From IMG/VR virus record IMGVR_UViG_3300025018_000091: DNA of 64,000 nucleotides; one strand, 5' to 3'. This stretch comes from a virus. Its lineage: Duplodnaviria > Caudoviricetes. Positions 35,671 through 56,522 of this stretch are shown piece by piece (position 1 is the first letter of the stretch; the number at the start of each line of letters is the position of its first letter). Below the pieces are notes generated by a model. That model was given only the letters and a program-made list of their open reading frames with translations, made no database searches and was not told where the DNA came from. Made by a program: the position numbers and the translations under genes.

Positions 35671-36852
35671 TTAATTATAGGCTCCCATAATATCAAATCT
35701 ATCTTCTAATTTCTGAATATAAGCAGCTCTACCCGACTCTAATTCCTCTTCAAAATCTTCAGAAAGCCAATGTTTAGGAATTTCATATAATTCCCACTCA
35801 TCACCATTCTTCATAAGAATAATCATATCTTTAGTGTCTCTAAGACGAGGATAGTATTCAATTGTTAATGCAATAGAATCATGATAAACTGCCTTATCAA
35901 AAGAACCAACCTCTCCCTCATCAGCGCCTGGAAAATACCAAGTTCGATATTTCAAACTAAAAATTTTACAAATCTGCTGGGCTATATAAGTAATCCTATT
36001 ATGTAACAGGACATCATATTGACTTAATTTCTTGATAACTTCAGTGCGCTTTTCAAAAAACTCTTCATTTAACGGACTAACTTTACCAAAATCGTTCATT
36101 AACATTCTCCATGACAAAATGCATGTTGTATTTTCCCAGCGAAGCTGACCACTACAAATCCCTTAAAAGTATCTCCATCATCAACGGCTTCAGAAGCAAA
36201 CCTAAATTGTAGTGCCTGTTCGTTCATAGACTTAACACCCTCAAGTCTCCAGTTCTCAGGCTTTATTACCTCTAATTTAAGGAAGTCAACCATTCCACCA
36301 ACCTCTTCAAGCAACTCACCATAATCTCCATATGGAGCTATATTAATCATATCTTCAATAACAATATCCACATTATCATTAATGTAATCTGCTAGACGCT
36401 CATACATCTGATTAAAAGATAATCCAAGTTTTTCTTGCACTTTCTTTTCAATATCTTCAGCCTCATCCTCTTTTGTTATTTCTAAATCATTATATGACTC
36501 AATCATAATCTGTAGATTCCTTTTTATAAAAATCGTATAATGCTTGGTAATCTTTCTTAAAAACTTTCTTTGTGTCTTTAATCATTTGTTTTAAAATTTC
36601 TTTTTCTTCTTTCACATCTACGAAATCTACTTTTGTTTCTTTGGTATATTGTTCTTGCTGCCTAATCTCTCTAAAAGCAGCGGCTAAAGCGAATTGTTGA
36701 TAATCCATCCCAGCTATTACATCTGGGATACTAGGTTTTTCCCTTTTAACTTCCTCTAAATAAGAAGCGAAATCTTCTAGACAAACAGTTCTATTTTTTA
36801 CATAGTTCTCTCTATCTGTTATTCTATCTGGATCTTCCTTCTTCTTTTTCAT
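35671..36852 (-). CDS. Three overlapping hypothetical ORFs (35671-36117, 36099-36506, 36499-36852)
   Basis: Co-oriented acidic ORFs with overlapping ends. Confidence 0.55.
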
Positions 36853-37481
36853 CGAAAACTATAAGCCTTTTTTGTAATAGAAACAATATCACTAATATTT
36901 GCCATAGCTCCAATTCCAGTTGTCCCACAAGCCAATTTCTTAGAAATAGGCTCAACTAAAACAAATAGCCTCTTAGAAATTCCCGGAGAAACCCGTTCCA
37001 TATATCTGTGGAAATCAACATCACCATTTTTATAAAAACGATACATGTGTGTAAGTTCTTCTATATTACGATATGTTGCCGGATGATTCCACATATCAGT
37101 ATTCATTGCGGGAGCAACTACAATAGGCTTCTCTGCTTTCCATGCTCTAATTGTAGATGTCAATAGATTGTCAGACATTCCATGAGCAATCTTTGCTAGG
37201 GTGTTGGCTGTCAACGGTGCCACTACCAACACGTCTGCCCAATCTTTTAAATAGATATGAGGGATCATCATGGACCCGTCGTCGTTGACGCGCTCATACT
37301 TAATAGGAAATTCGTCTTGGTCGTGCCATGTGGGGCAATGATATGCTTCATCATCTACAAAATGTTTTGCAGAATCGGTCATAACAACATTAACTTCATG
37401 ACCATCATTCTGAAAAGCCATCACCATTTTAGGCGTAAGCTTTGCAGCAATGCTACCAGTAACTCCTAATAGAACTTTCAC
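36849..37481 (-). CDS. coaC: Phosphopantothenoylcysteine decarboxylase (HFCD flavoprotein, CoaC)
   Basis: VLLGVTGSIAA, HIYLKDWAD, APLTANTLAKIAHG, APAMNTDMW and KLACGTTGIGAM. Confidence 0.9.
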   Translation of the reverse strand: MKVLLGVTGSIAAKLTPKMVMAFQNDGHEVNVVMTDSAKHFVDDEAYHCPTWHDQDEFPIKYERVNDDGSMMIPHIYLKDWADVLVVAPLTANTLAKIAHGMSDNLLTSTIRAWKAEKPIVVAPAMNTDMWNHPATYRNIEELTHMYRFYKNGDVDFHRYMERVSPGISKRLFVLVEPISKKLACGTTGIGAMANISDIVSITKKAYSFR

Positions 37482-38191
37482 GGCTTCTCCCCTATAAAAA
37501 ATAACGTGTCATATAATCTTTTTGGCAAATCATTCCTATTACACCCAGAAAGATGATCTACTCCATTTTTATTGGAAACAATAAAAGCCCTATCTTTTGA
37601 CCATTCCAAACAATTTGCCACTATAATATCTGCACCTGAATGATGCATACTTTTTGTTGCAATATCCGCTAACTCTTCATCAGTCATTCCAACTTGAAGC
37701 TTGAACTTCACAAGCTTGCCTTTGAAGCCCCATGGATTACGAATCTTATCAATAATCTTTTCAGTAGGAACTAACTTCAAAAACAACTCATTAGCTGATG
37801 AAGAAATCTTCTTAGAAGAATCTATTTTCTCCATTCCAAAATATCCTTTTGAATTAGGAATATAAGTTCCCTCAACTTTATAGTCACTTACTGCCGCAGA
37901 ATGAATAACAACATCATAATCATTTGATATAATTTGTTCTTCCATTAAAGCACACAGCTCATCATATGTTTTATATGGAAGTATATTAATGTGCCTTATA
38001 TTTTCAACTAAATGATGATGTGGATTAGATGTAATTAACGTAACTTCATTTTGAAAATGAGAATCAATAGGCGCCTTATAACAAAAATATCTTGCTAATT
38101 CAGCTCCAGTTCTACCTTTAAAGATATTAGAAATACATCTTACCTTATCAATCATTACATTAGTAGAACCGGCAGTTATTAATATTTTCAT
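37478..38191 (-). CDS. coaB: Phosphopantothenate-cysteine ligase (CoaB)
   Basis: ILITAGST...DKVRCISN...GRTG, IHSAAVSDY and LVKFKL. Confidence 0.88.
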   Translation of the reverse strand: MKILITAGSTNVMIDKVRCISNIFKGRTGAELARYFCYKAPIDSHFQNEVTLITSNPHHHLVENIRHINILPYKTYDELCALMEEQIISNDYDVVIHSAAVSDYKVEGTYIPNSKGYFGMEKIDSSKKISSSANELFLKLVPTEKIIDKIRNPWGFKGKLVKFKLQVGMTDEELADIATKSMHHSGADIIVANCLEWSKDRAFIVSNKNGVDHLSGCNRNDLPKRLYDTLFFIGEKP

Positions 38192-43693: not shown

Positions 43694-43920
43694 ATAAACG
43701 ACAAAAATTTGCTAAGACACCGGCACATTGATGGTCTTTTCAGATTACATCCGTTCGCCCCGCACTTTTGAGTCAGTGACTCTCTAGAAGACAGCATTAC
43801 CTGTTACCTTCGACTTATGAATATTACTATTCAAATTAGCGCCATCGCGTAATTCCTCACGGAATCAGTAGCTACCTTAGGGTCATTATTGATATGTAGT
43901 CCTAACTTGCATTCGTTTAT
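43694..43920 (-). ncRNA. Long Y RNA copy Y4 (227 nt) with a non-tRNA internal domain
   Basis: AUAAACGAAUGC/UUGUCGUUUAU; GUUAGGAC/GUCUUAGC; GGACUACAU; internal GNRA hairpins. Confidence 0.75.
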
Positions 43921-43997
43921 GGCTCCCGCACTAGGGTTTTCACCTAGAACCTCGCACCCTAATCTGGGTGGTACTCTGTATTTTGAGCTATACGGAA
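43920..43997 (-). ncRNA. tRNA-like element with a 6-nt anticodon loop
   Basis: D arm UAGCUCAAAAUACAGAGU, CACCC-AGAUUA-GGGUG, T arm CUAGG/CCUAG, GCCA. Confidence 0.6.
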
Positions 43998-44157
43998 TGG
44001 TCAACGGAAAAGGATTCGAACCTTTGACTACCCAGCACACTCAGAGTAACTATCATCGTCCTCAACATAATATATCGATCTATCATATTTGGTGTCGAAT
44101 AATCTTTAAACTAAATGCTTCTACTACTTGGTGCTCTGACCTCTGAGCTATCCGTCG
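43998..44157 (-). ncRNA. tRNA with about 90 nt inserted in the anticodon loop
   Basis: CGACGGA/UCCGUUG acceptor, canonical D and T arms, ACCA. Confidence 0.7.
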
Positions 44158-44162
44158 ATAAA

Positions 44163-44292
44163 GTAACAACAAGGATTTGAAGAGACTAGTTGTACTAGCG
44201 CCAGCTTCCCCATATAGTGGGGAATAAAGGAATCGGACCTTAATCGTTTATTGTATCAAAATAAAATGTAATCCCTTACATGCATTTGTTAC
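44163..44292 (-). ncRNA. Y RNA copy Y5
   Basis: GUAACAAAUGC/UUGUUAC; AAGGGAU/AUCCUU; T-arm AAGG-UCCGAUU-CCUU; UUCCCCA/UGGGGAA hairpin. Confidence 0.8.
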
Positions 44293-44293
44293 G

Positions 44294-44376
44294 TGGTTTC
44301 CCCGCTAGGATTTGCACCTAGATTTTCTACTTAGTACGTACTTAAATAGATGTCCTAATTATTAGACGACAGAAAA
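44294..44376 (-). ncRNA. tRNA-like element whose anticodon loop is a self-complementary 15-nt hairpin
   Basis: UCUAU-UUAAGUACGUACUAA-GUAGA; D and T arms intact; CCA. Confidence 0.6.
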
Positions 44377-44452
44377 ATACAATGCTTCTTCCTGGCTTCT
44401 ATTCCAGAATCTTCGCCCTAAGCGAGATAATAATTTATACTAAAAAAGCATT

Positions 44453-44529
44453 TGGTGCTTCCGTTCGCCTTTCGATAGCGAAATCTCCCAGGTTCATTCC
44501 GGGCGTTTTACCATTTAAACTACAGAAAC
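44453..44529 (-). ncRNA. tRNA-like element with aberrant anticodon and T loops
   Basis: GUUUCUG/CGGAAGC acceptor, D arm, CCCGG-AAUGAAC-CUGGG, 9-nt T loop, ACCA. Confidence 0.55.
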
Positions 44530-44531
44530 AT

Positions 44532-44676
44532 AAGTGACAAGAAATATAAAGATTTTATTCGGCGCCCTGCACTTTTTCCTTTCGGACCACTTGTGCTATG
44601 ATTAGCTTTCACTAACCAGCAGGATTCGATACCTGCACCATCGGACATTTTTGATGTAATCCTTATTGCATTCACT
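44532..44676 (-). ncRNA. Y RNA copy Y6
   Basis: AAGUGAAUGC/UUGUCACUU; AUAAGGAUU/AAUCUUUAU; T-like arm GCAGG/CCUGC. Confidence 0.8.
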
Positions 44677-44763
44677 TGGCTCTCAGGGCTGGATTCGAAC
44701 CAACGGTGCATTTCTACGGCGGATTAACAATCCGCTGCCTTGACCTGACTAGGCTACCTGAGA
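44677..44763 (-). tRNA. tRNA-Asn(GTT) with a long variable arm
   Basis: GCGGA-TT GTT AA-TCCGC; extra arm CGUAGAAAUGCAC; CCA. Confidence 0.82.
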
Positions 44764-45083
44764 ATATTATACTCAATAAAAGACTCATTAAATATTGACA
44801 CATTTAGTGGAACTAACAACACTCCTTCATGAATCTCGGCATGACAATTATTACAAACTAAGATGCACTTTCGTAATTCAATTACGATTTTATTCCAACT
44901 TTTAGGACTTCCTCTAACTGCTCCCAAACCAAATTCTTTTTTAGAAGGATCTAAATGATGTAAAGATAATGCAGAAGAACATTTATTATATCCACAGAAG
45001 CAACATTTACCTCCCATTGCAAGTATAATTCTCTCTTTTGTGCGTTTTCTCCAACGCTTAACTTTCTCAGATTGCTTACTCAT
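44754..45083 (-). CDS. HNH endonuclease
   Basis: CCFCG...LSLHHLDPSKKEF...CILVCNNCHAEIH. Confidence 0.88.
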   Translation of the reverse strand: MSKQSEKVKRWRKRTKERIILAMGGKCCFCGYNKCSSALSLHHLDPSKKEFGLGAVRGSPKSWNKIVIELRKCILVCNNCHAEIHEGVLLVPLNVSIFNESFIEYNILR

Positions 45084-45097
45084 ACTTAGATATATAG

Positions 45098-45168
45098 CGA
45101 CCCCCCTCGGACTTGAACCGAGATTCGAAACTTAACAGGCTCCCGTTCTACCTTTGAACTAAAGGGTC
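45098..45168 (-). tRNA. tRNA-Asn(GTT)
   Basis: CT GTT AA. Confidence 0.85.
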
Positions 45169-45173
45169 AATTA

Positions 45174-45456
45174 TTGATGACAAAATTTGTAAAGATAATG
45201 GCTTTATCTTAAGTAACACTGACGTGCCTCAAGAGCCATAGTGTAAGTATCCCCTCAACACCATATGGAATGTAATTTATCCATTAACATCTTTTGGAAT
45301 ATACAATTAATACTCACTGCATATTTATGAGACATATAGTTTTCTAACGGGTTTACCATTCATTATGTTTCGGAATGGCGGGCATTTCTTATAAATAAGC
45401 ATTACCCATTTATTATCGGTTGTTGTATTTATGTAATCCTTACATGCATTCATCAA
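45174..45456 (-). ncRNA. Long Y RNA copy Y7 (283 nt) with a non-tRNA internal domain
   Basis: UUGAUGAAUGC/UUGUCAUCAA; UGUAAGGAU/AUCUUUACA; GGAUUACAU. Confidence 0.75.
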
Positions 45457-45532: not shown

Positions 45533-45761
45533 GATTTGCGGATATCATCCGCAAGGGAAACTATTTTTTAGTTGTTTGTTTGGTACTCTTAGAACTCTTG
45601 CTAGAGTTTTTATTGAGTTTTCGCCAACATGGTCGGCAATATTTACCGCCAAGTGAACGAGCAATCTCACATGCTTTACACATAGTTCACCTCCTCTCAT
45701 TGAGTGGAGGTCACTAACTGTCAACTAAATAAACCATGAATTCTCCTTGAATAGAATTATT

Positions 45762-45907: not shown

Positions 45908-45982
45908 TGGTGGTCTCACTAGGACTTTCACCTAGACCGCCTCCTGAAATGGAGGTATTCATAAAACTTAAACTACAAGACC
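45908..45982 (-). ncRNA. tRNA-like element with a 6-nt anticodon loop
   Basis: GGUCUUG/UGAGACC acceptor, CCUCC-AUUUCA-GGAGG, CUAGG/CCUAG, ACCA. Confidence 0.6.
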
Positions 45983-45983
45983 A

Positions 45984-46081
45984 TGACGCTATAAACTTAT
46001 TTATTTGGTAGCGTCAGCGGGACTCGGACCCACAACCTCGTTCTTATAAATGAAATGTAATCCCTACAAGCATTTGCTATA
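45984..46081 (-). ncRNA. Y RNA copy Y9, 5' part only (closing strand not found)
   Basis: AUAGCAAAUGCUUGUAGGGAUUACAU, T arm GUGGG/CCCGC, UGACGCUA/UAGCGUCA hairpin. Confidence 0.65.
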
Positions 46082-46385: not shown

Positions 46386-46880
46386 ATGGCTAAAACGAAA
46401 ACTAACTGTTTAAATTGTAACAAAGAAATTTATGTTGAAAACAAAGAAATTAAAAGAGGTTTTGGAAAATTTTGTAATTCCAAATGTTCTAGTGAACATA
46501 GAATTCGTAATAAACCAAAATTGCTAGATAATGTAAATTGTGCCCTATGCAATAAATCTTTTCATATGACCGAAAGTAAAAAAAAGTTATCAAAATCTGG
46601 ATTATATTTTTGTTGTCGAACACATAAAGATGAAGCACAACGCATTGGTGGTATAAAAGAAATTATGCCGCTACATTATGGCACCGCCAAACCAGACAAT
46701 TCTCGTTCTTATAGAAGAATAGCTTTCAATGAAAAAGCTAAAATGTGTGAAAGATGTGGATATGATCAACACGAAGCTGCGATAATTGTTCACCACAAAG
46801 ATAGCAACAGAGACAATAATAATCTAGATAATCTTGAAATATTGTGTGCTAATTGTCACGCTATAGAACATTGGAGCTGA
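46386..46880 (+). CDS. HNH endonuclease
   Basis: FCNSKC repeats; IIVHHKDSNRDNNNLDNLEILCANCH. Confidence 0.88.
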   Translation: MAKTKTNCLNCNKEIYVENKEIKRGFGKFCNSKCSSEHRIRNKPKLLDNVNCALCNKSFHMTESKKKLSKSGLYFCCRTHKDEAQRIGGIKEIMPLHYGTAKPDNSRSYRRIAFNEKAKMCERCGYDQHEAAIIVHHKDSNRDNNNLDNLEILCANCHAIEHWS

Positions 46881-47803: not shown

Positions 47804-47871
47804 TAACTGACAAAATATAGTGTAGATGTTTTTGGTCAAATATCAATGTAATCCACACAAGCATTCAGTTA
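47804..47871 (-). ncRNA. Minimal Y RNA copy Y10 (stem module only)
   Basis: UAACUGAAUGC/UUGUCAGUUA; GUGUGGAU/AUCUACAC. Confidence 0.75.
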
Positions 47872-47961: not shown

Positions 47962-48613
47962 ATGAGGCAAGGTAAAATAGCATCTATCACAAACGAAGAA
48001 TTAACAACCCTTATACAAAACAATATATCATTGAAAAACGTTTTGTTATTTTTAAATCTACATCCGAGTAGTGGAAAATAGAAGATTAAAACAAAAATTA
48101 GAACAAGAGAATATCAATTACGATCATATCAAAAATGGTTCGGGATACGATCCCTCCAAAATACATACATTTAGAAAGCATGTATCATTGAATGATGTTC
48201 TTACTCTAAACTCTTCTTATAGTCCAAGATTACTTAAGAAGCGTCTTATAAAAGAAGGTTTATTATTCAACTATTGTAATGTATGTAATATACAGCCACT
48301 TTGGAATAATCTACCACTTCAATTACAGTTAGATCATATCAATGGTAACAATAGAGATAATAGGTTGGAAAATCTAAGATTATTATGCCCTAATTGTCAT
48401 TCCCAGACAGACACATTCGCTGCCAAAAATAAAATCAAAAAGAACAAACCTACAAAAATAGTACAACCACGAAAAACAAAGATAACTTGGCCAGATGACA
48501 ATGAGTTGCTAGATTTAGTAACAAACTCAAATTTTGTTCAAGTTGCCGCAACACTTGGTGTAAGTGATAATGCTATTAGAAAAAGATTAAAAAGAGCGGG
48601 GCTAATCAAATAA
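47962..48613 (+). CDS. HNH homing endonuclease; frameshift in the A4 run at 48075-48078
   Basis: Paralog of 18330-19058 including the upstream-frame N-terminus MRQGKIASIT; LQLDHINGNNRDNRLENLRLLCPNCH. Confidence 0.88.
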
Positions 48614-48993: not shown

Positions 48994-49058
48994 AAGGTAA
49001 CAAAAAGTGTAAAGATTGTTTTTTTAATGGTTAGATGTAATCCTTACGGCATTTACCT
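48994..49058 (-). ncRNA. Minimal Y RNA copy Y11
   Basis: AAGGUAAAUGC/UUGUUACCUU; GUAAGGAUU/AAUCUUUAC. Confidence 0.75.
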
Positions 49059-49134
49059 TGGTAGGAAAGGTTGGACTTCAACCAACGTCCTGACAACCTT
49101 TACGTTGCCTGCTCTTTCTCTGAGCTACTTCCCT
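49059..49134 (-). ncRNA. tRNA-like element with a 6-bp anticodon stem and 6-nt loop
   Basis: D arm GCUC/GAGC, GGCAAC-GUAAAG-GUUGUC, T arm, ACCA. Confidence 0.6.
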
Positions 49135-50394: not shown

Positions 50395-50911
50395 TCATTG
50401 TGTCCTCATCTTCTTAGCTAACGCCTCCTCAACATAAGGCGGAACAAACTTACTCACATCTCCACCAAACTTGTAGATTTGTTTAACCATAGACGAAGAC
50501 ACGACTGCCAATTTAGGATCCGTTGGAATGAATACTGTCTCAATTTTCGGCGCTAAAACTTTATTAATGCCAGCCAAATTAATTTCATATTCGAAATCTG
50601 AAACAGATCTAATTCCACGAATTAATATCTTCGCCATATGTTCTCTAGCAAAATCAGTTAACAACTTATCAAACGCTATAGCGTAAACAGAAGTTGGTAT
50701 ATATGGTGGCTTATCAGGATCTCCAAACTCACTTACTAAGAATTTAGTAATTAATTCCTGTCTTTCCTTAACAGAAAATAAAGGAGTTTTTCCTGGGTTA
50801 ATACCAATTCCCATAATCAATGTATCACAAAACTTCAAACTCCTATTGAAGATATCAATGTGACCATTCGTAATCGGATCAAAAAGATCCTGCGTAGATT
50901 GCAGTCACCAT
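50395..50911 (-). CDS. coaD: Phosphopantetheine adenylyltransferase (CoaD); frameshift in the A5 run at 50881-50885
   Basis: MVTAIYAGSF then DPITNGH in the adjacent frame; KTPLFSVKER, LIRGIRSVSDFEYE and VSSSMVK. Confidence 0.92.
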
Positions 50912-51865: not shown

Positions 51866-52489
51866 TCATTTTCCCTTACCAAAAAATCCAGACTTAGAAG
51901 GTCCACTCATACGATATCTCTTCATAGACTTAGAGACGTCTTGATATAAGCTGCGAGTCCCTGCTGGTGTTGGCATATAATCCATCGTATTATGTTGTGC
52001 AACACCTATTGAAGCTCCTTCTGCCATAGAATCAATATTGGCTCCCATGAAAACAAATTCCCACTTATAAACATCTTGTTGATGTTCAACCATAGATTTA
52101 ATCTGTTCCTTAGAAAATTCTACACTAGAGTTCTCTTCGCCATCTGTAATGACCAAGAAGATAACCTTAGAAGGGCGTTCATCCTCTTCCATTGTAGCCA
52201 ACTTAGCACCAACAGAATTAATGGTTTTACCCAATGCATCTAACAAAGCAGTACCACCTGCCGCTCTATATGTAGAAGAATCTAAATCAGAAATATCTGC
52301 TAATACCTTACAGTCATGTACCAAAGTATAATCTATACTGAATATTGCTAGAGTCAATACTGCTTCACCGGGCACATCTCTTTGGTCGGCTAGAAACTGA
52401 TTGAATCCACCAATAGTGTCGGATGTCAATCTTTGCATAGAACCACTTCTATCTATAACTACATTAATTGAGGTAAAATTTTCTTTCAT
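51866..52489 (-). CDS. von Willebrand factor A domain protein
   Basis: VIDRSGSM, GGTALLDA and ITDGEENSS. Confidence 0.92.
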   Translation of the reverse strand: MKENFTSINVVIDRSGSMQRLTSDTIGGFNQFLADQRDVPGEAVLTLAIFSIDYTLVHDCKVLADISDLDSSTYRAAGGTALLDALGKTINSVGAKLATMEEDERPSKVIFLVITDGEENSSVEFSKEQIKSMVEHQQDVYKWEFVFMGANIDSMAEGASIGVAQHNTMDYMPTPAGTRSLYQDVSKSMKRYRMSGPSKSGFFGKGK

Positions 52490-52521: not shown

Positions 52522-52908
52522 CTATATCAGTTTAAAACTTAATTTCTCTTGATGAGATAATTGTTTAATTTTGTATTCGAGCTTCATTGCTTCAGATTTT
52601 GTGGCGCAAAGATAATAAGAAACAATCCTAACTGGTCGTCTGGCTCTTGTATATTTTGCGCCCTTTCCATTATTGTGGATTTTTATTCTTTTCGCTAGAT
52701 TATTCGTAGCTCCCGTATATAATGTCCCATCGGCACATAATACAATATATGCTGCCCATTGTATTCCAATCTCAATAAGCTCTCGGCATGACTTGCAATA
52801 ATGCTGTTTTTTATCACAAGCAATTGCCATGGTCCTGCATTCACCTTGACCACAATTTAAACAAGGTGCATCACAGTAAGTATCATGTTCCCATGCAGTA
52901 TTCATCAC
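52522..52908 (-). CDS. GIY-YIG nuclease (UPF0213-like)
   Basis: YIVLCADGTLYTGATNNLAKRIKIHN.GKGAKYTR. Confidence 0.9.
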   Translation of the reverse strand: MMNTAWEHDTYCDAPCLNCGQGECRTMAIACDKKQHYCKSCRELIEIGIQWAAYIVLCADGTLYTGATNNLAKRIKIHNNGKGAKYTRARRPVRIVSYYLCATKSEAMKLEYKIKQLSHQEKLSFKLI

Positions 52909-53756
52909 ACACCAAACACTTGTTTGAAAGTCGTATATATTGGCGTACCTTCTCTTGAATCATACACTGCAAAACATACATGACCAAAATCAGGGATATC
53001 AACCAATGCTTGCTTGAAAGCATTGGCTACCATATCTGGATCATTTCCAAACGCCCCACATCCCCATGCTCCAAGAATTATATTCTCATGTTGATAAAGT
53101 CTGGCAATATGTAGAATTTTCAATATCCTATTATAAATAACAGAATATAAAACCTTTTCATCTATATCCTCCATTGACCTTACGTTTGGGGCAGGTGCTG
53201 AAATTATAGATAAATAATATGGATTTTCAAGGAACTGATTATATTCATCCCTAAAGAAAGGAACATTGGGAGAATAGATTATATTATCTGTATAGAATGT
53301 ATCATCACAAAGAATGTTCTCATTATAGAACACAGGCTTACGTTTAGTACAAACATATAATCCAGAACGCCTACAAAGGTCTTCTTCTTGAGCAACCGCT
53401 CCAGATAAAAAGCCGCCGCCAACATTACGAGCAGAAGCAAAATTCAATGCCACTATATCTTTTTTATTATCAGCAAGCAAACGAACCGCTGCTTGTGTGG
53501 TTGTTTCATTTACAACATCTACGATAGGGGCTGTCACGCTGGCTACAGGCGAAGTAGGTTGAGCATAAATGGCAGGAGTTACATCCTGAAATAGTTTGGT
53601 ATGATCAATAGCTTCATCCAAAGCAAAAGAAATGTCAACAATATTTCCGCTTGGTGCAATATATTGTTTATGTTTTAATACATCTAGCGTATCTTTTGCG
53701 AGGGAAACATTCTTTGTCCTAGCATTCATTAATGCAACACCATCACGTTTAATCAT
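52905..53756 (-). CDS. TIGR02452 family macrodomain (bacterial PARG-like)
   Basis: LNFASARNVGGGF, AQEEDLCRRS and ILGAWGCGAFGND. Confidence 0.92.
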   Translation of the reverse strand: MIKRDGVALMNARTKNVSLAKDTLDVLKHKQYIAPSGNIVDISFALDEAIDHTKLFQDVTPAIYAQPTSPVASVTAPIVDVVNETTTQAAVRLLADNKKDIVALNFASARNVGGGFLSGAVAQEEDLCRRSGLYVCTKRKPVFYNENILCDDTFYTDNIIYSPNVPFFRDEYNQFLENPYYLSIISAPAPNVRSMEDIDEKVLYSVIYNRILKILHIARLYQHENIILGAWGCGAFGNDPDMVANAFKQALVDIPDFGHVCFAVYDSREGTPIYTTFKQVFGV

Positions 53757-54319: not shown

Positions 54320-54997
54320 TCATTTCTCTGCATATTTATTTCCTAATTTGGAACAAGATTTGCATTGTGTTGATTTATCATTCAATAAATCAAATGCCGA
54401 TACAATCGCTTCTTTATCACATTCGCAACGGCAATTGTATTTGTTACAACCATCAACTTTACTAATAATTGTCCAAGAATTGAACTTATCACCAACATTA
54501 AGATAAGTTCGTTTCTTTGGTGTAGTGAAAGCTTTCAGCGGCTCCCAGCCTTCTGATATTCTATCTTTTGCCAAAGTATATTGAATATTATATATTTCAC
54601 ACCACTCTACCATTGGTTTGGTTTCAGAACCAATGGTAATTAATTTGGTGGTCCTACGATTGCGAGCCTGCTGTTTATCAGTTGCCCAGCGACAATTATC
54701 AGGAGAATAATTCCCATCACTATCGATCCTATCAATAGAATGTTTGGCAGATGGCTTGAGCCCCATATCTTGATGGAAATTATCAAATCCATCAACACCA
54801 AGCCACCTATCACAAACAGTTATTCCTCTACCACCATAATTCTCATAAAAAGGAGTTTGTGGATAATAACACCTACGTATCATATGATACCAAGCATTAT
54901 ATTCTTTAGTCCTTGAATTTGAATATTTGTACTTAAATCTTGAGGGAAGATTAAAGTTTAATCTGCTCGATTGTGTTGACCCATAAGTCTGCATCAT
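54320..54997 (-). CDS. HNH-type homing endonuclease
   Basis: YGGRGITVCDRW, SIDRIDSDGNYSPDNCRWAT.KQQARN. Confidence 0.88.
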   Translation of the reverse strand: MMQTYGSTQSSRLNFNLPSRFKYKYSNSRTKEYNAWYHMIRRCYYPQTPFYENYGGRGITVCDRWLGVDGFDNFHQDMGLKPSAKHSIDRIDSDGNYSPDNCRWATDKQQARNRRTTKLITIGSETKPMVEWCEIYNIQYTLAKDRISEGWEPLKAFTTPKKRTYLNVGDKFNSWTIISKVDGCNKYNCRCECDKEAIVSAFDLLNDKSTQCKSCSKLGNKYAEK

Positions 54998-56522
54998 TTC
55001 CGTACTCCATGAACTTATATATCACGTCAAATACAGAATCGCCGAATCCTCCAATGTTAAGCACGTCATTTCTCGAATGAGCTTGCGTAGTTGCTCCTGG
55101 TTGAATATCAATGCAAACTAGCTTTGCATTTGGGTTGTTTTTCTTAAACTTCTGCCAAGCATACATAGTAGCAGTGCTACGATAACGTCCAGAATCAACC
55201 CAAGACTCGTTATCTGAAACATAAATCACTAGGTCTCCCTTAGCTCCTTCACGATTCAGTTGTTCTAATGGAAGTGAACAGCTAGTTCCACCACCACCAA
55301 ACTTAGCTAGATAAGCTGCATTTGTCATGATAGAATCCATAGGATTCATCTTAGCATTATGCACCCTAGTATCGAAAGGCATAACTCTTGCTTCTGGGTT
55401 CTTACGCAAGATTGCTGCCGCAACCAAAGCTGCAACATCTACACAAGTCGTCTTTGAAGTCACCGTTGAACGGTATCCCGTTACTGGAGAAGCCATCGAA
55501 CCTGAAACGTCTACCATTACATAGACTTTCCCATTGATTTCAGGAATGTTCTCACAAGCTACTTCCGCAGCCTTTTGCAAAGCCATGTTTAACTTCATAG
55601 GAACCTTCTCATCAATGTTTTTGAAAGCCGTGAACAACTGATATGGGAATACCTTTGCTCTACGAATCTGCTCTGGATCTGCCAACTTATCTGCCAAAAC
55701 AGAAACCAACTTAGTATCTTCCAACACACCGTGGCGTGCGAAAGTATTCAAATTCATTCTGACCTGAGTCCAAGTTGCATTGTCAGCAATCTTCTTCCAG
55801 TGTTCCTTTGTTAGAGGCAAAGCAGTCAACATCTGGAAAGGAACGTTAGGGATCTCTCCCTTCATATCCTTCTTGAAGGCTTGGAACTGACGAACCAATG
55901 GGCATAGATCTTTTCTATTATACTCCTTGTCAAGCAAGTAAGCATACATAGCATTTCTATTCTTGTTCGTTGGACGAGGGTGTACCAACTTGATAATATC
56001 TTCTAGCGAAGGATCATTACCAACATTAGCCTTAAACAACTGCTCATCAGTCAACCCCTCAAGATAAGCCTGTATTAACTTCTTTGGACGAGTACCCAAA
56101 GACTTACGTCCCGTTGCTCCAGAACGAACAATCTGCACAAAATTGCGCACCATCTTTGGATTGTCAATGACCTTTGGAAAAATCTTCGAAAGGAGTTCTG
56201 GCGCTCTACCTGCAACCAAAGCTGCAAGAACAGCAGGCATATCCTTCATAAGTCCCTTCTGTCTCGAATACACTGCCAACTTTGCCAAGAACTCAGGACT
56301 AACCTTCTTGGAAAGTTCAAGTACCTTATTCAACTGATCCTTATCAGAAGCATAATACGTACCGTTAAGACAACCAGTCATTGCATACTGCGCAAGCGCA
56401 GCTTTATCACTCAACTTATAAGCCTGTCCTCCAGCTTCATTCACCGTATCGGCTGCTCTCACAACCTTAACTGAAGTTGACTTGCTGTTTGACTTGTTTG
56501 AGAATAGGTTCTTAGATGCCAT
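54951..56522 (-). CDS. rsr: Ro60/TROVE domain RNA-binding protein with C-terminal vWA domain
   Basis: NEAGGQAY, LAKLAVYSRQKGLMKD, VRMNLNTFARHG, VFPYQL and MIDAS VDVSGSM. Confidence 0.93.
   Translation of the reverse strand: MASKNLFSNKSNSKSTSVKVVRAADTVNEAGGQAYKLSDKAALAQYAMTGCLNGTYYASDKDQLNKVLELSKKVSPEFLAKLAVYSRQKGLMKDMPAVLAALVAGRAPELLSKIFPKVIDNPKMVRNFVQIVRSGATGRKSLGTRPKKLIQAYLEGLTDEQLFKANVGNDPSLEDIIKLVHPRPTNKNRNAMYAYLLDKEYNRKDLCPLVRQFQAFKKDMKGEIPNVPFQMLTALPLTKEHWKKIADNATWTQVRMNLNTFARHGVLEDTKLVSVLADKLADPEQIRRAKVFPYQLFTAFKNIDEKVPMKLNMALQKAAEVACENIPEINGKVYVMVDVSGSMASPVTGYRSTVTSKTTCVDVAALVAAAILRKNPEARVMPFDTRVHNAKMNPMDSIMTNAAYLAKFGGGGTSCSLPLEQLNREGAKGDLVIYVSDNESWVDSGRYRSTATMYAWQKFKKNNPNAKLVCIDIQPGATTQAHSRNDVLNIGGFGDSVFDVIYKFMEYGNDADLWVNTIEQIKL

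Follow-up and report, generated by a model that had tools for sequence, protein, structure and literature searches.

We report that two long RNAs encoded by the virus of IMG/VR record IMGVR_UViG_3300025018_000091 (Duplodnaviria; Caudoviricetes), of which a stretch of 64,000 nucleotides (nt) was analysed (the window), appear to be Y-like RNAs in which a Ro60-binding handle encloses a folded cargo other than a transfer RNA (tRNA)-like domain. The first, Y4, belongs to a family that very likely copies the region of helices 69 and 70 (H69-H70) of 23S ribosomal RNA (rRNA), and probably the whole H67-H70 junction. The second, Y7, can with good confidence be predicted to be a three-pseudoknot RNA. 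On balance, a Y4 junction mimic and a Y7 pseudoknot chain, both displayed by Ro60, provide the best overall explanation of our data. Specifically, comparison across related loci demonstrates the predicted handle, the family structure, the rRNA correspondence and the co-occurrence with Ro60.

The window contains at least 11 Y-like RNAs, marked by a common 5' motif and all on the same strand as each other. Y4 and Y7 both lie on the minus strand and, as proposed in an earlier sequence-only reading of this DNA (the original prediction), have the two-helix handle that also closes the other RNAs of the array. With both handle helices closed, Y4 measures 221 nt and Y7 279 nt; this confirms the earlier observation, whose lengths of 227 and 283 nt take in some flanking bases. 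The 5' end pairs with the 3' end, forming a long bulged stem of two helices with many two-sided changes, and the pairing probability in Y4 and Y7 is 0.9-1.0 for the inner helix and 0.4-0.6 for the outer helix. The 5' handle motif of bacterial Y RNAs has been described (PMC4201824). Its CGAAUG core is invariant in the Y4 class, the first G of the GNCGAAN(0-1)G motif not being kept in the window Y4, and the Y7 class has UGAAUG together with a matching change in the pairing partner. By their paired ends and the Ro60 gene encoded alongside, Y4 and Y7 qualify as Y RNAs in the broad sense, with Ro60 binding itself predicted. Their inserts have no T-arm, in agreement with the original prediction, and no tRNA or YrlA match was found on either. 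Folding energy alone singles out Y7 (z = -3.2) and is not significant for Y4 (z = -1.2).

The predicted parts of Y4 are as follows.

43697..43917, minus strand: Y4 RNA, 221 nt, Ro60-type handle plus predicted mimic of the 23S rRNA H67-H70 junction.
43895..43917, minus strand: 5' handle strand, with the CGAAUG motif, the inner-stem strand and a conserved ACA tail.
43871..43894, minus strand: block resembling the 3' half of 23S H69, the C1925-G1929 triloop and the 5' strand of H70.
43850..43870, minus strand: variable GNRA hairpin at the place of H71 (the first hairpin named in the original prediction).
43837..43849, minus strand: equivalents of the H70 3' strand (with an invariant A.G opposition) and of the H67 3' strand.
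43768..43836, minus strand: variable hairpin insert capping the H67-like helix and holding the second hairpin named earlier.
43721..43767, minus strand: equivalent of the H67 5' strand, a one-base linker (place of U1834) and a helix like the base of H68, assigned by register and pairing.
43697..43720, minus strand: 3' handle strand.

The cargo thus runs from the H69 block through the triloop, the H70 5' strand, the hairpin standing for H71, the H70 3' strand, the H67-like helix and the linker to the H68-like helix. The Rfam consensus of 23S rRNA shows the same helix order and bulge positions (H67, U1834, H68 base, H69, triloop), and the circular order in Y4 is that of the ribosome, opened between 1905 and 1906, where the handle is inserted. 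H71 and the distal helices of H67 and H68 are replaced by variable hairpins; the insert capping the H67-like helix ranges from 14 to 69 nt across Y4-type members. In the family the H68-like helix consists of three pairs, a 2-nt 5' bulge, two to three pairs and an AA 3' bulge, and in the window Y4 it has a 2-nt bulge on each strand and a variable hairpin cap. The other H70 pairs of Y4 are presumed; they fall at positions that Rfam leaves unpaired. Both GNRA hairpins that had been pointed out in Y4 are present in the predicted fold, as variable parts outside the conserved cargo.

The rRNA likeness emerged from the family. Handle-closed RNAs near Ro60 genes, selected without use of the cargo sequence, yielded four Y4 homologues (L033, L074, L081 and L100), and the start of the L100 cargo is 100% identical over 29-30 nt to Escherichia coli 23S rRNA (seven copies per genome), the matched stretch being H69 and the first strand of H70. 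Pattern scans added phage members and ten bacterial metagenome-assembled genomes (MAGs), mostly Myxococcota or Deltaproteobacteria and one labelled Hyphomicrobiaceae. Since two E. coli records carry errors just 5' of H69, the rRNA register was set on Myxococcota 23S genes. A profile of the five members that had been found without the rRNA block scored best at 1917-1934 (27 bits) on four Myxococcota 23S genes; shuffles peaked near 7 bits, and none of 200 reached the score at 1917-1934. Moreover, a scan with the 3' blocks alone gave 11 matches, corresponding to four known members, three new ones (two distinct) and four chance hits, and the new members (L285 and L286/L287) also carry the handle and the H69-H70 block. 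The bacterial homologues are exact over 1917-1934. A collinear, continuous match to rRNA is confined to 18-30 nt, the other parts being permuted and interrupted, unlike what a 23S rRNA gene or pseudogene would show.

Pairing is maintained as the sequences change. The C1925-G1929 pair is U-A in four members, an H70 C-G pair is U-A in L128, L129 and likewise L269, and one H68-like pair is A-U in nine members and G-C in five. This A-U/G-C covariation fixes the register, and the direct H68 register fits; two other readings of this helix, as an inverted H68 or as the decoding site of 16S rRNA, were thereby rejected. The A1932.G1968 opposition, which is a sheared pair in rRNA (PMC4665369), is invariant across Y4 members, as are positions 1918, 1919, 1921, 1924, 1927, 1928 and 1930-1933. 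In a MAFFT alignment of 14 Y4-type RNAs 97.9% of the cells pair in the proposed structure (reached by 0 of 500 shuffles), compared with 27-47% when the structure is slid along the alignment, where derivation of the structure from the same 14 sequences favours it over the slid controls. Both sides change in 54 cells, a count not reached in 500 shuffles and one that kinship can inflate. Two divergent Y4-type RNAs (L125:3714 and L119:210) keep the H69-H70 block and have the H68-like part lost or rearranged.

Ro60 is encoded in every Y4-family genome checked. Several bacterial Y4-type copies lie in Ro60-tRNA-Y arrays; five others stand alone, and each of the five genomes concerned has a Ro60 of the same subfamily at another locus. 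In a sample of 41 genomes (incomplete MAGs, with one carrier being the seed genome) this Ro60 was present in nine, and all three Y4 carriers were among those nine.

For Y7 the following parts are predicted.

45176..45454, minus strand: Y7 RNA, 279 nt, with handle, A-rich leader, hairpin, three abutting pseudoknots and 3' helices.
45332..45378, minus strand: pseudoknot A, stems of 6 and 5 bp and a long A-rich loop.
45299..45331, minus strand: pseudoknot B, stems of 3 and 6 bp.
45269..45298, minus strand: pseudoknot C, stems of 4 and 5 bp.
45231..45271, minus strand: possible fourth pseudoknot or hairpin, suggested by the window sequence only and overlapping the end of pseudoknot C.

Homologues sharing the outer helix were found in approximately ten phage contigs, and the three pseudoknot units keep their order across members with gaps of 0 nt between them. 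Pseudoknots B and C show several pair types, including CUG/CAG and CUC/GAG, and the pseudoknot-chain score of the window insert exceeds that of 60 of 60 shuffles. Of the two Y7 helices in the original prediction, CCAUUC/GAAUGG proved to be stem 1 of a pseudoknot; GGUGU/ACACU falls within the possible fourth pseudoknot or hairpin. Among relatives, three Y7-type RNAs (L007:19277, L033:17838 and L047:20862) have a second, internal handle-like GAAUGC hairpin in the 5' domain, the L007 RNA has pseudoknot C twice, and a tRNA-like element with a variable anticodon loop directly follows the Y7-type RNA.

Several results weigh against these interpretations. The window Y4 has 14 of 18 identities at H69-H70 (1917-1934), a level reached by shuffles, and is not significantly rRNA-like on its own; it is thus the family that carries the rRNA claim. 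Equivalents of H67 and H68 show no significance by sequence alone, and their assignment is consequently inferred from structure; several of their pairs are flipped, nothing corresponds to A1970, and the C1833-G1972 pair is not preserved. Phage members have the H69 loop tip (1911-1916) shortened or changed. The H70/H71 loop, which is cut by MazF-mt6, is not retained in the Y4 family. For Y7, only about half of the other members reach a significant chain score when taken singly. The pairing counts (pseudoknot A in ten members with two-sided changes, B and C in nine of nine members at every position) lean favourable because loop lengths were fitted per sequence.

How might these RNAs act? We suggest that the RNAs of the array dock on the phage Ro60 ring through a common stem, each presenting a folded module of its own. 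The RNAs would be cut out of a tRNA-punctuated transcript, and Ro60 would bind and stabilise those released. Y4 might then bind a host protein that recognises the H67-H70 junction of the 50S subunit and so sequester a toxin or defence factor directed at the ribosome, allowing translation to continue in the infected cell; Y7 may do likewise with a pseudoknot-binding protein, and the bare stems of the array could serve as gates or stabilisers of Ro60. That Y4 acts as such a decoy is our preferred but tentative reading, at somewhat less than even chance, and we place it above tethering and docking on the 30S subunit because the array shows many look-alikes of translation RNAs and jumbo phages protect translation. 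The latter offset attacks on translation, and a subset of them carry TROVE (PMC7824862). More broadly, it is possible that Ro60 of these phages and of myxobacteria displays a whole library of RNA mimics, with Y4 as a self-contained small version of the 50S interface junction, acting in trans as decoy or probe for a toxin or factor that targets the ribosome, and Y7 as a second class of non-tRNA mimic.

Y4 could instead be a tether, bringing to Ro60 an enzyme of 50S assembly, modification, repair or decay that would then act on damaged rRNA. This is only a little less probable than the decoy and is the established mode of Y RNAs, as Yrn1 tethers PNPase (bioRxiv 10.1101/312249); in a phage, Ro60 together with its Yrl RNAs binds PNPase of the host (PMC12135203). 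A tether is also favoured by the Y4-type RNAs on bacterial chromosomes, some of which have housekeeping surroundings that make a role in anti-defence less likely. Against the decoy, no paper in our literature search connected H69 with an anti-phage toxin. A general nuclease tether would, however, not need near-exact rRNA sequence, and the variety of cargo within one array (tRNA-like, anticodon-loop-like, rRNA-like) suits many different targets. Alternatively, Y4 might be a miniature 50S interface that docks on the free 30S subunit and either brings Ro60 there or blocks subunit joining. H67, H69 and H71 form bridges B2b and B2c (PMC4665369), and the invariant Y4 positions 1918, 1919, 1921 and 1930-1933 fall in this region. 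Docking is nevertheless unlikely since the H69 tip and H71 are not kept: the loop tip, which makes bridge B2a, decays in phage members and H71 is replaced. Finally, Y4 could be the decaying remnant of a captured rRNA gene fragment, or be maintained as DNA because a homing endonuclease targets it, with no function as RNA. The exact block of the bacterial members falls on the I-CeuI site, and several HNH and GIY-YIG genes of the phage are nearby; yet the Y4 parts are permuted and interrupted by variable hairpins, their pairs covary as the sequence changes and the unit is always inside the handle, and we regard this origin as very improbable.

With respect to Y7, its layout (an A-rich leader and a hairpin, then three abutting pseudoknots and a closing helix) resembles that of the pk2-pk4 arc of transfer-messenger RNA (tmRNA), the handle taking the place of the tRNA-like domain, and it might imitate this arc to titrate proteins that bind or cleave tmRNA. 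Such imitation fits a theme of translation-RNA mimics, and short stretches of L008, L031 and L201 locally resemble pk2 and pk3 of E. coli. It is nonetheless doubtful: there is no significant similarity to 66 bacterial tmRNAs or four tmRNAs of related phages, no Rfam tmRNA match at Y7, no tmRNA found in the window by ARAGORN and no conserved tag frame in Y7-type RNAs, and tmRNA pseudoknots are larger than those of Y7. An origin of Y7 from tmRNA was rejected, the similarity to these 66 bacterial and four phage tmRNAs being at chance level, as was a two-piece tmRNA, for the tRNA-like neighbours of Y7, by inspection, carry a G discriminator and lack the G.U alanine pair. In each of the five searched records of related jumbo phages a full-length tmRNA is encoded far from the Y array (L354-L357: G482, G001, G004 and G002). 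By analogy with the pseudo-ToxI of phage PhiTE (PMC3475682), Y7 might also be a pseudo-antitoxin cassette that neutralises ToxN, CptN or TenpN, an idea we hold to be improbable. Its units of 30-47 nt have antitoxin size and one L008 unit has a ToxI-type U and UUAAGU loop (p = 0.026, uncorrected), but this likeness is seen in one of 11 Y7 members and the window copy is without it. Moreover, the units are not repeats of one another and abut with no single-stranded tails, to which type III toxins mainly bind (PMC13682666). Descent of Y7 from ToxI was likewise rejected, only the L008 unit being alike at that uncorrected p value.

The handle-plus-cargo design put forward in the original prediction is supported, and is already the published architecture of Y RNAs as a Ro60-binding module joined to an effector module (bioRxiv 10.1101/312249). 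Three roles had been offered for the cargo. An antisense guide finds no backing within the window, where the longest complements are 11-12 nt, equal to shuffles, nor does a ribozyme, as no known ribozyme or riboswitch was matched in Rfam. The proposed Rfam check returned no ribozyme or YrlA at Y4 or Y7 and no tmRNA at Y7. Of the three roles, only protein binding in the manner of an aptamer fits. What had been missed is that, as predicted here, the Y4 cargo is a mimic of 23S rRNA helices 67-70 and Y7 a triple-pseudoknot chain. A small-open reading frame (ORF) reading was also discarded: a Y4 frame ending in NYAMALI looked tag-like and is not conserved in the family. Three-frame translations of ten Y7-type and 12 Y4-type RNAs gave no conserved tag frame ending in alanines.

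The window is part of an AT-rich, tRNA-rich jumbo phage with 29 tRNA calls; related contigs reach 480 kb, and no close relative was found among cultured phages. The presumed partner of the Y RNAs and the two bare stems, which lie outside the span of the original finding, are located as follows.

54951..56522, minus strand: Ro60/Rsr gene with TROVE and vWA_Ro60 domains.
47805..47868, minus strand: Y10, bare-stem Y-like RNA, 64 nt.
48996..49057, minus strand: Y11, bare-stem Y-like RNA, 62 nt.

The Ro60 gene is 9.5-11 kb upstream of Y4 and Y7 on the same strand. Most Y-like RNAs of the array begin a few bases past a tRNA 3' end, promoter and terminator scans gave results at chance level, and among the array RNAs only Y8 resembles Rfam YrlA (28.9 bits, cut-off 69). 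Y10 and Y11 are bare stems as had been noted, slightly shorter than the 68 and 65 nt given then. The class is common, with 55 distinct RNAs in the fetched loci, and hairpin-only partners alongside YrlA have been described previously (PMC4201824). At L001:14624-15100 a 142-bp tandem repeat holds four near-identical bare-stem Y RNAs, suggesting copy-number expansion.

Other members of the array and its relatives differ in cargo. Y6 (window 44533-44676) is of a YrlA-like class with an extra hairpin in the D-loop equivalent, and this class recurs in several phages (L037:18003, L046:15921, L047:20441 and L201:9994-10141). In Y9 (window 45975-46077) the 5' handle, T-arm and closed acceptor stem run straight into a degenerate tRNA (45908-45982), and a search for the 3' handle strand found none. 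Immediately before several Y RNAs lie degenerate tRNA-like spacers whose T-loops or anticodon loops are unusual (window 43920-43995, 44295-44380, 45908-45982 and 49059-49134). The handle RNAs at L119:11714 and at L120:5348 and 4598 (minus) have hairpins with anticodon-loop-like sequences (Lys CUU, Leu, Phe), and such RNAs of relatives are possible decoys for anticodon nucleases. Flanking the Ro60/tRNA region are a gene for a PARG-family ADP-ribose hydrolase, an ORF that by eye looks vWA-like, and genes resembling CoaBC and CoaD (window 52905-53756, 51866-52489, 36849-38191 and 50395-50838). HNH or HNH-like ORFs sit among the tRNA and Y RNA genes (window 44754-45083, 46386-46880 and 48071-48613; two on the opposite strand), and hairpin-rich non-coding stretches with neither Rfam match nor Y handle lie between tRNAs (window 45540-45760 and 44380-44530).

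The literature searched, with subscription papers mostly outside it, holds no Y RNA with an rRNA-like or multi-pseudoknot cargo; within it the modularity of handle and effector is already known and the rRNA-mimic cargo is new. Published bacterial Y RNAs mimic tRNA, and Y4 and Y7 would extend the imitation beyond it. A Y RNA that rebuilds the four-helix 23S junction by circular permutation would show which ribosomal surface has been kept by selection, and Y4 could be used as a small natural bait for a protein recognising this junction. Were that protein a defence nuclease, Y4 would represent an RNA-based counter-defence aimed at the ribosome itself. The Y4 family may also provide a natural minimal model of the late-folding H67-H70 region.

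Among known systems, bacterial and phage YrlA/YrlB with Rsr/Ro60 (RF02553; PMC4201824; bioRxiv 10.1101/312249; Yrl1/Yrl2 of Thermus phage phiLo, PMC12135203) likewise have a terminal bulged stem with a CGAA-type motif, proximity to the Ro60 gene on the same strand, a modular handle and effector, and short hairpin-only partners. YrlA permutes a tRNA circularly and Y4 does the same with the 23S junction. In contrast, the Y4 effector copies that junction and the Y7 effector is a pseudoknot chain, neither being a tRNA; neither RNA scores on RF02553, and as a tRNA-like domain with T and D arms is absent they are not YrlA. The window has at least 11 handle RNAs, compared with two in these known systems. 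With H67-71 of 23S domain IV (RF02541) Y4 shares the H69 3' strand, the C1925-G1929 triloop, the H70 pairs and A.G opposition, the H67 stub, the double-bulged H68 base and the circular order. It differs in being opened at 1905/1906, in having variable hairpins for H71 and distal H67/H68, in lacking an A1970 equivalent, in the H69 loop, which is degenerate in phage copies, and in its size and place (approximately 200 nt, outside an rRNA operon). Y7 and the tmRNA pk2-pk4 arc (RF00023) are alike in layout, with a leader, a hairpin and three directly adjoining H-type pseudoknots enclosed by a closing helix, whereas Y7 has no alanine tRNA-like domain, no conserved tag frame and no significant sequence similarity, and related phages encode a separate full tmRNA. 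The type III antitoxins ToxI/CptI/TenpI and the PhiTE pseudo-ToxI (PMC3475682, PMC8860590, PMC13682666) are tandem small H-type pseudoknots with A-rich loops. Y7 has H-type units of the corresponding size, about 35-50 nt, but these are dissimilar, abut with no tails and are enclosed by a Ro60 handle, and the genes next to them are tRNAs, with no toxin gene downstream. With the PhiTE pseudo-ToxI the proposed role of Y7 shares the use of phage RNA mimicry as counter-defence.

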